A DNA stretch of 64,000 bases, from contig MQRK01178987.1 in assembly GCA_001938485.1 (NCBI GenBank), positions 3,053 through 67,052 on the forward strand. Direction: 5' to 3'. The position numbers were made by a program, and so were the translations under genes. Source of the DNA: Girardia tigrina. Taxonomy: Eukaryota. Positions 37,256 through 43,963 of the stretch are shown here, in pieces. The number at the start of each line of letters is the position of its first letter. Within the stretch, counting starts at the first letter, position 1. Below the pieces are notes generated by a model, which was not told the DNA's origin, made no database searches, and saw nothing but the letters and a program-made list of their open reading frames with translations.

Positions 37256-39984
37256 CAGTGGCGTAGCGACTGTTTTTGGTGCCCGGGGCGGTCCTAAGAT
37301 TTATCGCCCCCCTAACCCTAACCCCTGATTCGGAACCATTAATTACTGTTTTTACTAAAAATTAAAGAGAGTCAGAAAATATTTACTTTAATTTCATATT
37401 TTTCTTGCAATACTCTTATTCTCATACTAAAAATTACCAAGTAACGAAGTCATTTAAAAATTTACAATTTTATTTACAATTTACAAGCGAACTTTTCGCA
37501 CTTTCAATTCTGCAAATTTATTGATAACAGTATCAAAATTCAGTTCAGCAGAAAACTCCCTCTCAATGTAGAGGACTACCAAGTCTGTAAGCCTTGATTG
37601 GCTCATTGTAGATCGGAGATAGTTCTTAATGAGCTTTAATTTAGAAAACGAGCGTTCGCAGCTGGCAACGCTAATAGCCCGGGTAAGAAAGATGCGCAGC
37701 AAAATCACAATATTATGGACGGAGTCTCCAAGGTAATATCTCTGTGTGAAGCTCAAAAGTTCTAAAGGTCCGTCAATTCTGTTATTTCCTGAAGCTCGGA
37801 CAAAATACTGCAGTCTTATTCTTTCGGCTAAGAATTCCTCTTTCTCCACCTCGTCTTCTATTTCACCAAGTTGGCAATCGTAATTATCATCATAGAGATT
37901 CGATGGTGCAATAACAGCATATCTGTTTGCAAGATCATGAACTTGTTGAAATCTTGAATATATTTCGTCTATCAACCTGTCTATGACAGACAGCATTTCC
38001 CGTCTCAACTCAGCATCAAATGTCATCGCTACATTAGTCGATCCCTCGCCATCCATTCTTTTTTTTTTGCGAATACGACGCTCCATACTAATCCCCATTT
38101 CAAAGCAGAGCTTTTTGGATTCGTCCATTGCACAGTCCACCATCTTTTCTCTATTCTTAAAAATGTTATCTCTCAGTGATATGAGCTAGACAGAACTTTG
38201 ATGCAGATCGAGCCCTTTTGTTTGAAGATACTTCTGGGCATCATTTATCTCTGGTAGAATGGAATTCCAAAGGTTCAAAAGCGATAGAAACGGAAATGAC
38301 AGTACTGATGATAGGAATAAAGATGCATCTGATCTTGTCATTAAATTTCTCTTTCCTTAATGAGCTTCTCTAGAGCAGTCATGACTTGTGATAATTTTTC
38401 CACCAACACATTTACAGCATATTCTTTCCCAGTTTAACTTTTACCAAATGTTCACGGAGCACAGGGTCATACTTGGCCAACAAATGAACCAATTCCAAAA
38501 AGTTTCCTCTATTTTCCTGGTCTCCATCTTCGTGGATGTCTTCTCGATGGCCCCTTAGTGCCAGGTTTTGCGAGAAGAGAAATCTGATGATGTCCAGTAA
38601 TCTAGCTAGACTTTCTCGCCATTTCTTAGTCTCCTTCTCAATTAATTCTTCCTCTACTTTGTTTATTGCCTTTCCATTAGCGAGCCGGATCTTAAGCTCC
38701 TTCCACTTGAGGAATGCCTGCGCATGCGATGCGCTAACTTCGTGCTCATGAACTTTAGGATTTAATTTCCACCAGTTCTTAAAGCCTTCTTCAGTAGAAA
38801 AACTAGACAGCCTAACTGAAAACAGTCTGCTGCAAAAGTAGAACAGGGACTCCTTTGAAGGAGAATACACCATCCATGTTCTCATACTTTTCTCTCCATT
38901 CCGTAGATCACGAAAAACCATTTTTGGTTAGCTTTCTAGTGTTACCTTTTGTCCTTGTGCCTGGTCGTGGTACTTCTTTGAATTAACAATGAAGGTGCTG
39001 CATAGAAGTATATCCTTGACGAACAAGCATAGCGCGAATTTCATGGCTAATCTTAACTGACCAAAGACGTAAAAAATCACTGTAAAATCACTTATAAAGT
39101 ATGTTTTCAGAGTGATTAATTGGTGCATTTCTTGTGCTTCAATTTCCCTCTCATAAACTTCTGCATCAATGCCAACTTCACCTTCCACAGTAACAGTATC
39201 GACTTCAATTGTAGCATTAGCAATATCAAATTTATCCACAGTCTCTATTGGATTATCGTCCTTTTAAACGACGAATTGGTTTTACCGTATTAAATAAGAA
39301 TAAATACAATGCAATATCCAAATTTTTTTAACAAAATCGATTTTTTTAATTTTCAATTCTTTTCAGCTTCATAAAAAAATCAAATTTATTTGCTAAAAAA
39401 GTAATTATTTAAAAAAAAATCAAAAATTTAAAATTAAAAAAAATGACGATTTTTTTACGGTAAGTATTGCTTACGTATTTTTTTCTTATGTACTTTTTTA
39501 TAAATTAGTGGGTACAAGTTGTGCTGAACAACAATTACAATACTTTGACAGCGGATATTAAGTATTAATTAATCAATTAATTGTTTTTTTTAACGATTAA
39601 AATGTTTTAGCTTAATCAAAATTATAACCACATACTTTATACATGCTTTTGAAATTAAGCACTAATTTACAGACATACAAAGTAAGAAAATGCAATCAAA
39701 TAAAATCTAATAACCGGAAGTATTTAACTGAAATACAAAAATCAAAACATTGTCATGTAACGGTAAAGAATTTGTGCATATCTGGTAAGAGACAAATCTT
39801 CCAACCCATTGGCAGTTTTCATTAAATTAGTTCAGTTTAACATTCTGTTATGTCCAGCATTTATGGTCAGATTTTTCTTCGTTTTATTTTATACATAATA
39901 TTTCTCCCATTCACAAATGCCGCCACCAACAGTCGTGCCGCCCGGGGCAGATCGCCCCCTCCGCCCCCCTACGCTACGCCACTG
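37256..39984 (-). mobile_element. hAT transposon (Tip100/ZMYM1-like), degenerate transposase
   Basis: TIRs CAGTGGCGTAGCG / CGCTACGCCACTG; 8-bp TSD CAGACTAC; ORFs 38412-38921 (LALRGHRE..NRGNFLEL) and 37481-38143 (SVASCERSFSKLKLIKNYLRSTM). Confidence 0.95.
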
Positions 39985-40067
39985 CAGACTACACATTTAT
40001 TGTTTTTAATTAAATAAATTTTTTTGTCATTATTATCCATTAATATTTTAATTAATTATCATTTTCA

Positions 40068-43000
40068 TGTAACAACGAATCACAAATCTATAAAATTTAT
40101 TTTTCACTAACAAATGCTTTTTAAATAGATATTATTTAAACAAATAATTATCTATATTTTTTCATGTTAAATATTTCTTTTAAGAAATAAATTTAACATG
40201 TAACACTCCCACCATATTCTTCGTCACAAGAATCTATATCTACCACATACTCGTTCAAATATTTCGGTTTTCGTCTTTCTCTTTGGGGTCTGTTACTGAT
40301 TCCCGATTCACTTTGCTTAACACTCGGAGCTGGTTCGTTGTTATTTTCCAACATGTAATCCGAGTAAGAGTTTCGCGGCAGATCTGGTTGTCTTGGTCGA
40401 ATATCTCCTATATGCCGTGGACCGCAAAAACCATCACAATTTATTAAGTACTTTCTTTGATCCAATTTTCTAACGACAACGCCTCTTGTCCATTGCTTTG
40501 TACATGGCATATTATTTTCAGGCTTTGCCCAGACTAACTGTTGCTCTTTATCTTATTGTAAACCGGCTCTTTTTCAATTCTTTCGATTACCTCCAAACCC
40601 ACTGAAATGTACTTGTAAAGTCCTGATCTAGGTGTCTCCTTTCCGTCGGATGGTGTATTTTTATACCACCATAATGCTTCCATGATACTGATATTTGATC
40701 GAGATGCAATTCTCTTGATTGTCTTATGATTTCTCTCTATTATTCCGTTGCAATTTGGTCGATTAATAGCGCGGTATAGGACTTGTACATTCCACTTTTC
40801 CATCAACTTTCTGAATTCGGCTGAATGAAATGTCGTATAATTGTCAATAATCAACTCCTTTGGAGATCCACGCTCGCAGAACAAATTTGAAAACTCTGTA
40901 ACAATCGACTTGACATCCTCAGCAAGTCTTGTCCAGTTTTCATTGACAGCTAATTTTCCAGTTTCCCATTTTATTGGTGCCGGATCAATAGATTGACAAC
41001 TTTGACACTTCGAGATCAAATCCTTTATATCCGCATTTGACACATTTATTTCCAACTTATCGCACAGATATCGCATTCTCTTTACACCTAAATGACATCT
41101 GTCATGAAGTTTCTGTAGTTTGAATATGTCATCTGTTACAGACAAAAGGCAACTGCTTCGTTTTAATTGTTTGGGCATTCTTGTCAGTTCAACAGCCTTG
41201 TTGTCTTCACTATTAACAAACTCAATTTTCAAAGTTATTTCGTATTCCTGGCACAACTCCTTAATCATTGACAATCGGTGCTTTATCAAAAGCTCGGAAG
41301 AGGCATTCGTGTGTAATTTATTTCGCTCTGATAGTGCCTCAGTTATCAAAGAAACAACTGATTTGTTATCTGATTTTACTACAACATTCGTTAGTCCCCA
41401 TTTAATACACAGATTTAGACCCTTTACAACTGCTTCTAGTTCTGCTACGTTTATGTGCCTAGAATCATCAGTTTTCATTAACCATGATGCGTTTTCTATA
41501 ATATTTCCTTTAACTTCCAATGCTGCCCCAATGGCTATCGAACTGGCATCACACCATATGATGCCGTCTTTACAATCACCAATACTCCATATCCCTCTAC
41601 AAGGATCTTCCGCCTTAACTTTTTTCAAAACAAATTTGATCTTCTCGAATAATTCGACATCTATTTTCTCATCCCATTTTCCTTCACTGAGCCTTTTCAT
41701 GTAGGAGCATGATGAACGTAGCCAACCTGCAACAGGGTGGATTCCTACTAATTGGCCACACAGCGAATATAACTCGCGACGCGATATTGATTCGGCAACT
41801 ATCTCGTCCTTGAAATGATTCTCTCTCATCCATCTCACCGAATTCTTATCTCTAAAGACTTTAACTCCCAACACTCGCACCTCTTTATCCATTGAGAGTT
41901 TCTGGTTTTTTGCATTTTAGACTAAATTTCTCGAACAGCATTCTAATTTCGTCAACTATGATTTCAGATTCGTCAACGTAAATGTCATTGATGTACGAGT
42001 CGGTGTTTTCACGTGCTCTAGGATCAGAATTTAAAATCCACTTGACAATTTCAGTCATAATGGTCGGAGCGATATTTATGCCAAAGCTCATCCTGGTTAG
42101 AGCGTACTTTTTTCCATTAATGACACATGATTGATAACGCCACATTTCCTTGTGAACGCGAATCTGCATATACGCCTCTGATAAATCAAGCATGGAAAAT
42201 CTTGATCNNNNNNNNNNNNNNNNNNNNNNNNNNNNNNNNNNNNNNNNNNNNNNNNNNNNNNNNNNNNNNNNNNNNNNNNNNNNNNNNNNNNNNNNNNNNN
42301 NNNNNNNNNNNNNNNNNNNNNNNNNNNNNNNNNNNNNNNNNNNNGGTATAGATCCTATCGATTTACCCATTTCCTTCTCGTCATAATCGATTAAATAACC
42401 CTTCTTCATCCACTCCTCAAGGATTTTCATTGTAGCTATGTCTTTCGATTTGTCATCCTTAAAGATCGAATGTCGAATTGGTAGATAACTCGGCGCTTCA
42501 TCTTTCCACTTCCATTTAACCATCCAATTATCCTTAAATTCAATCTCATAATTGTGTTTGTTCAGGCTAACTCTTGGCACAACACCCGTGACACAACTCA
42601 TATTGTCACCAGCCTTCTTTAGTCCTTCTCCTACACACACACACCAAATTCGATAACACCCTTATTAATTTTCACACCCCAAGTTCACTTATAACATCCA
42701 TACCAATTAAAATTCCCAAATCATAGGGTAAGTATTTCATGACAGAACATTCNNNNNNNNNNNNNNNNNNNNNNNNNNNNNNNNNNNNNNNNNNNNNNNN
42801 NNNNNNNNNNNNNNNNNNNNNNNNNNNNNNNNNNNNNNNNNNNNNNNNNNNNNNNNNNNNNNNNNNNNNNNNNNNNNNNNNNNNNGTTTTTGAGCAACCC
42901 GAATCTATTAACGCTGTAACCGACTTGTTGTTAACAATGACAGTCATGGTTGGCAGCGCCGGAAATGTCAGAGGGAGAGAGCCGGCGCCTACAAACTCCC

Positions 43001-43875
43001 CTGTACTTTTTTCGACTTGCAATATTTTGCAATATGTCCAACTTGCTTACATTCATAGCAAATTATTTGTCCATTCGATTGCCGCTGAAAATTTTCATTA
43101 CGGTTTACCCTTGTTTGTACCAGATTTCCGTCATGTGGCACACGGGGTTTTGTAAAGGAACTCCTTCTACCGCCGCTGACCTCACCTCGTTCTTTAGAAA
43201 CGATCTTTCCATCACCAACGTTTTGTACCGCTGACATTGAACTTTGTGTGACACATTTTTTTAATTCCTAAATACCTACGACTATATTCAACCATTTCGG
43301 TTAAATCTTGATCGCCGACCTGCTCTAAATTCAATTGCAACTCGAACGGCAATCCAGTCATAAAAGCCGCCTTGGTCAGATCGTCAATTTTTGATGCCAA
43401 CATCTTTACTTGAGAAACGTAATCGTCAATAATTTGTCCTTCGTAATATTTCAAATTAAGCAGTTGGCTGTACGCAGATCGTCTGGTTAATCCGAATGAA
43501 TTGTCCAAGATTTGCAGTACTTCTTCACAGTTGCTCTGTTTCTTTTCATNNNNNNNNNNNNNNNNNNNNNNNNNNNNNNNNNNNNNNNNNNNNNNNNNNN
43601 NNNNNNNNNNNNNNNNNNNNNNNNNNNNNNNNNNNNNNNNNNNNNNNNNNNNNNNNNNNNNNNNNNTGCCGTTTCCATTAAATTTCTCCAAATGATCGAG
43701 TATAATTTTTAAATCGCTTATCATTGCCCGGATAGCTTGTAACAACGAATCACAAATCTATAAAATTTATTTTTCACTAACAAATGCTTTTTAAATAGAT
43801 ATTATTTAAACAAATAATTATCTATATTTTTTCATGTTAAATATTTCGTTTAAGAAATAAATTTAACATGTAACA
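40068..43875 (-). mobile_element. LTR retrotransposon (Troyka-like): gag-PR-RT-RH-IN between 138-bp LTRs
   Basis: LTRs 40068-40205 and 43738-43875 (TG..CA, one mismatch seen); 4-bp TSD TTCA. Motifs CYECKQVGHIAKYC, ALIDSGCS, LDLSEAYMQI, YINDI, CDASSIAIG..HINVAELEAV, HDRCHLG..CQSC and NGIIERNHKTIK. Frameshifts and gaps present. Confidence 0.95.
43726..43737 (-). promoter_or_regulatory. Primer-binding site complementary to tRNA-Lys(UUU) nt 1-12
   Basis: AGCTATCCGGGC abuts the 5' LTR; its complement GCCCGGATAGCT is the 5' end of metazoan tRNA-Lys(UUU). Confidence 0.8.
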
Positions 43876-43963
43876 TTCATATAAATTTTAACATTTCAAA
43901 ACAGTTTTTATAAAATATTCAAATCAAATATTAAAATTATTGACGATGATGTATGATATTTCT

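Follow-up and report, generated by a model that had tools for sequence, protein, structure and literature searches.

A retrotransposon lineage in Girardia tigrina and in metagenomic sequences, with a candidate primer-binding site for the first 12 nucleotides of a host tRNA

The question raised by this locus of the flatworm Girardia tigrina is how an LTR retrotransposon could start minus-strand synthesis when its 5' LTR is followed directly by the complement of the 5' end of a tRNA. The window, that is, the whole stretch of DNA analysed, comprises 64,000 nucleotides of contig MQRK01178987.1. Three types of LTR primer, namely the whole tRNA, the half tRNA and the self-primer, are distinguished in the accessible part of a review (PMC6317226). 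No primer of the present kind is added by the ICTV profile of Metaviridae or by the accessible parts of the profiles of Pseudoviridae and Belpaoviridae and of PMC10886601.

The element lies on the minus strand of the window, spans 43875 to 40068 and comprises the following features:

43876..43879, no strand: target site duplication (TSD) TTCA, outer copy at the 5' LTR
43738..43875, minus strand: 5' LTR, 138 bp, TG..CA, very A+T-rich, a direct repeat with 40068-40205 with 1 mismatch
43726..43737, minus strand: candidate primer-binding site (PBS) AGCTATCCGGGC, complement of host tRNA-Lys(UUU) nt 1-12, spacer to the LTR 0
43212..43724, minus strand: first gag reading frame, ATG one base past the PBS, partly masked, no Pfam match
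42672..43046, minus strand: gag end and aspartyl protease piece, partly masked, RVP E 0.009
41885..42661, minus strand: reverse transcriptase (RT) piece, partly masked, RVT_1 E 1.8e-5
40534..41916, minus strand: DUF7047, RNase H, H2C2 zinc domain and DDE integrase core, Pfam matches
40193..40552, minus strand: integrase C-terminal piece in a different frame, resembling the end of relative P0001
40206..40221, minus strand: polypurine tract (PPT), abutting the 3' LTR
40068..40205, minus strand: 3' LTR, 138 bp, TG..CA
40064..40067, no strand: TSD TTCA, copy at the 3' LTR

The insertion is young, since its two LTRs differ at one base, and the copy is broken: its coding pieces (protease, RT, DUF7047, RNase H, H2C2 and integrase core) are spread over several frames, stretches of it are masked, and its integrase core is 30 residues shorter than that of P0001. 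The latter relative is 88% identical to the window element and gives clear protease matches. In the window copy the first gag frame reaches a stop codon ahead of the zinc-knuckle region and the RT catalytic motif is YIND; its PPT has a lower G content than those of sister copies. The RNase H motifs DASS and HINVAELEAV, followed by an integrase, are present as had been described. The 4-bp TSD described earlier (TTCA) holds for the window copy but not as the norm: 20 sister copies were fetched, 9 of them with two LTRs, and 7 of these 9 have an exact 5-bp duplication. The duplication in the window can alternatively be read as one of 5 bp minus one A at the 3' LTR junction. A hAT transposase remnant (Dimer_Tnp_hAT, DUF4371) adjoins the element at 37481-38927 on the minus strand.

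The interval singled out by the original prediction takes in the PBS and the 5' LTR, and its description of the junction was accurate. The 12-mer AGCTATCCGGGC at 43737-43726 abuts the terminal CA of the LTR and is followed by one A and by the gag ATG at 43724-43722; no TGG is present at the LTR-gag junction of the window, and canonical priming from a tRNA 3' CCA end was rejected on this ground. The prediction identified the 12-mer with nt 1-12 of tRNA-Lys(UUU), and its exact complement starts four host tRNA-Lys(TTT) genes, so a host tRNA with this start, on which that identification depended, does exist. The match covers nt 1-12 exactly, stopping before nt 13 at one end and before the 5' leader of the gene at the other. 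It is the longest match of any host tRNA to the junction, the next isotype reaching 8 nt, within a partial set of host tRNAs. A single occurrence of the 12-mer is found in the window, against none in 100 shuffles. The 12-bp duplex of PBS and tRNA has a predicted energy of -23.5 kcal/mol versus -10.6 kcal/mol for the acceptor stem, and annealing of the PBS to the folded unmodified tRNA is predicted at -6.2 kcal/mol, all of these being values that ignore tRNA modifications and tertiary structure. The host tRNA-Lys(TTT) genes form a tandem array with units of about 520-550 bp (contig C249670); the Ala, Thr and Ile tRNA genes are likewise found several per contig.

A primer encoded by the element itself was also considered and rejected, as no full complement of the PBS was found in the LTR or in the unmasked part of the element. 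The best self-complement in the window LTR is 8/12 with G-U pairs allowed; among 44 relatives no LTR contains the full complement (12/12) of its own site, the best value being 11, in 2 of them.

The site is kept beside the LTR in the rest of the family, as the prediction required, and also in distant relatives. The exact LTR-PBS junction of the window family was identified 1,019 times in the genome (reversed control, 0). The best 30 loci of the family comprise 23 with the exact 12-mer and 7 with one substitution, a selected set because the query contained the site. The Lys 12-mer after CA, with the gag start of the window family excluded, gave 301 more matches (control, 0); the 40 loci fetched from these comprise at least 7 further types of LTR end and gag start, making at least 8 host types with the Lys 12-mer in all, and their Pol pieces are 38-67% identical to P0001. 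Of four contigs from public runs, three, one of them from an RNA library, span the junction and list no difference in the site, and they are silent on transcription and on primer ends.

A second site is present in the same genome. A pattern excluding the Lys type gave 1,416 genome matches versus 346 in the control. Among the first 100 matches listed, 62 read AGCTATCGCGGC and most of the others differ by a CpG-type change from AGCTATCGCGGC or from the Lys type; the TTTC and TCTA types, common elsewhere, were not found among these 100 (hand counts). The 20 fetched loci with AGCTATCGCGGC represent about 11 types of LTR end and gag start and have no DNA similarity to the window element, and 10 of them match proteins of the lineage. 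The complement of AGCTATCGCGGC is the start (nt 1-12) of a host tRNA-Phe, pieced together from a 5' piece and an overlapping 3' piece; the latter contains the arm with the GAA anticodon and an acceptor strand that matches. The identity of this tRNA rests on that overlap, since pattern search found no contiguous host tRNA-Phe gene and neither piece is called by ARAGORN or Rfam.

Parts of tRNA-Phe(GAA), those of the 5' side covering about nt 1-31 and those of the 3' side running from the D loop on, are located in copies of one repeated unit on contigs C56195, C181207, C241992, C187162 and C250656, more than 1 kb apart in C181207; they may represent a decayed array, an assembly artefact or a split gene. 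Five tRNA-Phe copies with the same start as the host tRNA-Phe were identified, spaced by 3,738 bp, in a contig of a bacterial metagenome-assembled genome, and this array is probably explained by eukaryotic contamination.

The distant relatives were obtained with the RNase H-integrase frame of the window element as query, 209 long proteins being found at E <= 1e-20. DUF7047 is present in all of the 120 proteins that were listed of these 209, and one relative protein cluster carries a crab name. An alignment of 60 relatives led to 62 metagenomic loci at 33-41% identity, and the 5' end of gag is available in 45 metagenomic relatives. The motif AGCTA-N4-GGC is exact in 40 of these, its eight fixed positions being invariant among the exact matches by construction because the motif was defined from these data; four more carry a one-edit form and one (L058) has none. 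CA directly precedes the site in 42 of 44 relatives. The 36 distinct junctions present no conservation past position 12 or upstream of the last 3-4 bases of the LTR, so that conservation of the site ends at tRNA nt 1, and 246 kb of reverse strand contain no AGCTA-N4-GGC. Three relatives (L054, L066 and L091) have one G missing from the final GGC, which could be decay or the use of another tRNA. No relatives were found in the viral contig collection. For many of the metagenomic ones (L033-L094) the assembly is a circularly permuted contig of ~4 kb that has a single LTR; these contigs may be collapsed repeats or real LTR circles.

The variable part of the motif maps to tRNA positions 4-7. Its variants are TCGC (12), TTTC (12), TCTA (7), TCAC (6), CCTC (2) and TCCC (1), and the Lys type is found in 0/62 metagenomic loci. 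Nucleotides 1-12 of Drosophila tRNA-Phe(GAA) are complementary to the TTTC type (PMC7038984). Among 168 matches in viral and prokaryotic collections, four of the six variants start GAA tRNAs, one starts a CAT tRNA and one was not found, a weak indication, since those collections are not the hosts of the elements. One TCGC element nests among TTTC elements with an RT identity of 79-80%; the site thus changes between tRNA variants while the RT barely changes. Agreement of the site with the tRNA variant of its host was observed in a single genome, that of Girardia tigrina.

The position of the site, its length of 12 nt, its exact end at tRNA nt 1 and its conservation across families are all read directly from the DNA. 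Two different host tRNAs (Lys and Phe) are matched by the sites of one genome, and the candidate site sits where minus-strand synthesis must start. From these data the most probable reading, to which we give a probability of about 0.72, is that a 5' piece of a host tRNA, 12 nt long, primes minus-strand DNA synthesis, the tRNA being tRNA-Lys(UUU) in the window family and tRNA-Phe(GAA) in most relatives. The central claim of the original prediction, priming by a 12-nt 5' tRNA fragment, is well supported, as something deduced from sequence. In the proposed mechanism the PBS would invade the acceptor stem and pair through tRNA nt 12, and the tRNA would then be cut behind this nucleotide, within the D stem (5' strand), leaving a free 3'-OH that faces the CA with which the LTR ends. 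A cut there is likely because nt 12 must offer a free hydroxyl if synthesis is to proceed toward the LTR. Plus-strand synthesis would then copy the primer to its 5' end and run off, and this copying would rewrite the site from the tRNA; such rewriting would account for the abrupt end of the site at nt 1 and for its agreement with the tRNA variant of the host. Primer copying of this kind takes place in retroviruses but reportedly not in Ty1 and Ty3 (PMC7472051).

Two known systems resemble the proposed one. Priming of the Hemivirus type also uses a 5' piece of a host tRNA and not the CCA end; it is described for Drosophila copia, yeast Ty5, the plant elements Osser, Bryco, Gymco-II and Bianca, and rust-fungus Copia and Helenus (PMC6317226, PMC10886601, PMC8515867). 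Those elements, however, belong to Copia and their site pairs with the anticodon arm of the half tRNA, whereas the present lineage has the order PR-RT-RH-IN and its site pairs with tRNA nt 1-12, so that the whole primer would be paired. The second system is that of Tf1/sushi (Schizosaccharomyces Tf1 and Tj1), in which, as may be the case here, the PBS is paired with a short segment of 5'-terminal RNA. To judge by a title of Levin from 1996, the RNase H of Tf1 reportedly cuts the RNA duplex. The segment in Tf1 is the 5' end of the element's own RNA, which is cut free after pairing (PMC4600332). Tf1 thus uses its own transcript, whereas the LTR of the present lineage contains no complement and the partner would be a host tRNA acting in trans.

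By analogy with Tf1, which likewise primes from a short RNA piece of 5'-terminal origin, the RNase H of the element is favoured as the cutter, at slightly better than even chances if priming is by a fragment. A host nuclease could instead make the 12-nt 5' fragment, or shorten a larger D-loop fragment, ahead of packaging, and capture alone would be left to the element, an account that differs from the favoured one in the cutting step only. This is possible but we hold it doubtful. The listed primer types include half tRNAs that are cleaved within the anticodon stem (PMC6317226), and 5' tRNA fragments are a known class (PMC7472051), but tRNA fragments are given as 16-35 nt in the abstract of a review (PMC7515703), and a single 12-nt register is kept across two tRNA species and deep RT divergence, which we infer to fit a ruler set by the element better than host processing. 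The register, the position and the lack of a known 12-nt fragment would be explained equally well if the intact tRNA annealed by nt 1-12 and RT started, as in retrons, at the internal 2'-OH of nt 12 on an uncut, branched molecule; the predicted annealing to the whole tRNA is favourable. Work on Ty5 is said to have left such a start open, but we know of no LTR element with proven 2'-OH priming. As all three listed primer types use a cleaved or natural 3' end (PMC6317226), this route is unlikely.

Slightly less likely still is a primer that stops at tRNA nt 10, in which case the AG beside CA would be the dinucleotide trimmed by integrase, and nt 11-12 would pair for annealing only. Retroviral and many Gypsy integrases do trim two bases after CA, and the PPT side likewise has AG before TG in most copies. 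Nevertheless AG is found in 44/44 sites as the exact complement of tRNA nt 11-12, which trimming would not need. The site might also serve to bind tRNA for packaging, to dimerise RNA through the palindrome AGCT or to control the start of gag, whose ATG usually lies within about 25 nt, while another primer is used. Such a role is very improbable, for no other candidate primer site was found (no TGG, no self-complement in the LTR, 8 nt for the next-best host tRNA) and the site lies exactly at the minus-strand start, whereas its distance to the ATG ranges from 0 to 43 nt. Twelve nucleotides are few, and a chance match or a single captured scrap of tRNA might be suspected; it is hardly credible and was refuted by the junction counts in the genome (controls 0), the multiple host families, the 0/100 shuffles, the two host tRNAs matched and the conservation in 44/45 relatives.

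The classification of the lineage is less settled. The original prediction assigned the element to Troyka (Kuafuorterviridae), and this assignment did not survive comparison. Troyka elements have CG..CG ends, 3-bp TSDs and a knuckle of the form CX2CX8-10HX4C (PMC12440569), with the RT motif IADD, VADD or LADD (PMC11673190). In the present lineage the LTR ends are TG..CA in the window, sister copies and relatives; the TSD is of 5 bp, exact in 7/9 two-LTR copies, and of 4 bp in the window copy; the knuckle is CX2CX3HX4C plus CX2CX3-4HX4C in 12/12 full-length relatives; and the RT motif is YIDD in 41, YVDD in 12, YLDD in 5 and FVDD in 2 of 60 relatives. The precedent claimed for 5' tRNA fragments in Troyka was not found either: the 2025 Troyka paper lacks the words 'tRNA', 'primer' and 'PBS', and no primer is described for Troyka in the accessible parts of PMC12440569 and PMC11673190. 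Both groups are nonetheless animal LTR elements with short LTRs and the order PR-RT-RH-IN, separate from Gypsy in RT trees. A GPF/Y motif past the integrase core is present in 1/60 relatives, an absence shared with Troyka and with several other lineages and hence not diagnostic.

The features of Metaviridae (Ty3/Gypsy) that were identified are the LTRs, the PPT and gag followed by PR-RT-RH-IN. The PBS of that family pairs with the 3' end of a tRNA (ICTV Metaviridae profile), whereas here 12 nt are complementary to the 5' end and TGG is lacking. Three full-length relatives give a weak RVT_1 match and neither RT_RNaseH nor RT_RNaseH_2, while the host Gypsy controls have them (4/4). In quick RT trees a branch separates the lineage from the RTs of host Gypsy (18), BEL (3) and LINE (3). 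The SH-aLRT support of this branch is 92 in a tree that left out 13 lineage rows without an exact PBS label and six out-of-frame BEL translations, and 88 with a mixture model on 38 of 76 rows; the Gypsy sample comes from one genome only, and the deep branching order is unsure because long branches meet in these trees. Elements of the Lys type fall outside a clade of the Phe type (SH-aLRT 97-98), which gives no support to a recent switch from Phe to Lys; the trees give the change no direction.

Defining features of the following other groups are absent: Belpaoviridae (BEL/Pao), since PF05380 is not matched and the RT is separate from 3 host BEL RTs; Hemivirus (Pseudoviridae), since the integrase is last and not upstream of RT, and since its half-tRNA primer is cut in the anticodon stem while the match here is to tRNA nt 1-12; Tf1/sushi self-priming, since the element's own 5' LTR has no full PBS complement; and DIRS/Ngaro/VIPER, since rve and Integrase_H2C2 matches, direct LTRs and TSDs are present and no tyrosine recombinase takes the place of the integrase. 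The description of the RNase H as DIRS-like has only loose backing, from the Atlas: ahead of Gypsy-type and BEL clusters (0.90), the nearest ones there are hepadnavirus P and RT clusters without a name from euglenozoans and molluscs (0.92-0.95), a proximity that is a lead only. A tyrosine-recombinase search of the host genome gave 8 loci (L207-L214), perhaps of Crypton type, with no RT within the fetched flanks, and therefore no DIRS outgroup from the host. The PDB search gave generic integrase and RT matches only.

The lineage is like Cigr-1 in size and ORF layout, a likeness by description and not by sequence. Cigr-1 is about 4.2 kb long with one long ORF. The Cigr-1 clade (RepeatMasker LTR/Gypsy-Cigr) is reported from Ciona, molluscs and annelids, and neither PBS nor tRNA is mentioned for it in the accessible parts of those reports (PMC6238403, PMC8556966). 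No Cigr-1 sequence was found in the available supplements of PMC6238403, PMC8556966 and PMC3670739. The reference set of 418 RTs of PMC11673190 contains no RT motif strings of the lineage, which alignment gaps could hide, and no Cigr.

The site is real and lineage-wide, it seems to have no description in the literature open to search, and it probably represents a variant form of priming by tRNA fragments in an LTR lineage whose classification is poor. No retrotransposon with this site was found in the literature searched, PBS strings included; Repbase Reports, GyDB and subscription journals were outside that search, and there is a substantial minority chance that the site is already noted in one of them. 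A bolder reading, which we regard as tentative and rather improbable as a whole, is that of an unclassified animal lineage at the superfamily level (DUF7047, a DIRS/hepadnavirus-like RT-RNase H and a DDE integrase) with a fourth primer type, in which the element's RNase H cuts the annealed tRNA after nt 12 and plus-strand run-off rewrites the site from the tRNA-Phe or tRNA-Lys of each new host. If true, this would be the shortest tRNA primer described and a bridge between tRNA priming and self-priming of the Tf1 type, and silencing by 3' tRNA fragments would not reach the lineage.

A site for tRNA nt 1-12 kept across a whole lineage would raise the types of LTR primer from three to four. The group is present at thousands of copies in the host genome and is missed by PBS finders that seek tRNA 3' ends. 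It offers a sharp test of how tRNA fragments become primers, whether by the RNase H of the element, by a host nuclease or by a 2'-OH, the route from fragment to primer not being known to be settled for copia and Ty5. It also predicts escape from silencing by 3' tRNA fragments together with exposure to 5' ones. Finally, CA|AGCTA-N4-GGC is a simple sequence marker for a lineage whose place among the LTR superfamilies is unsettled.
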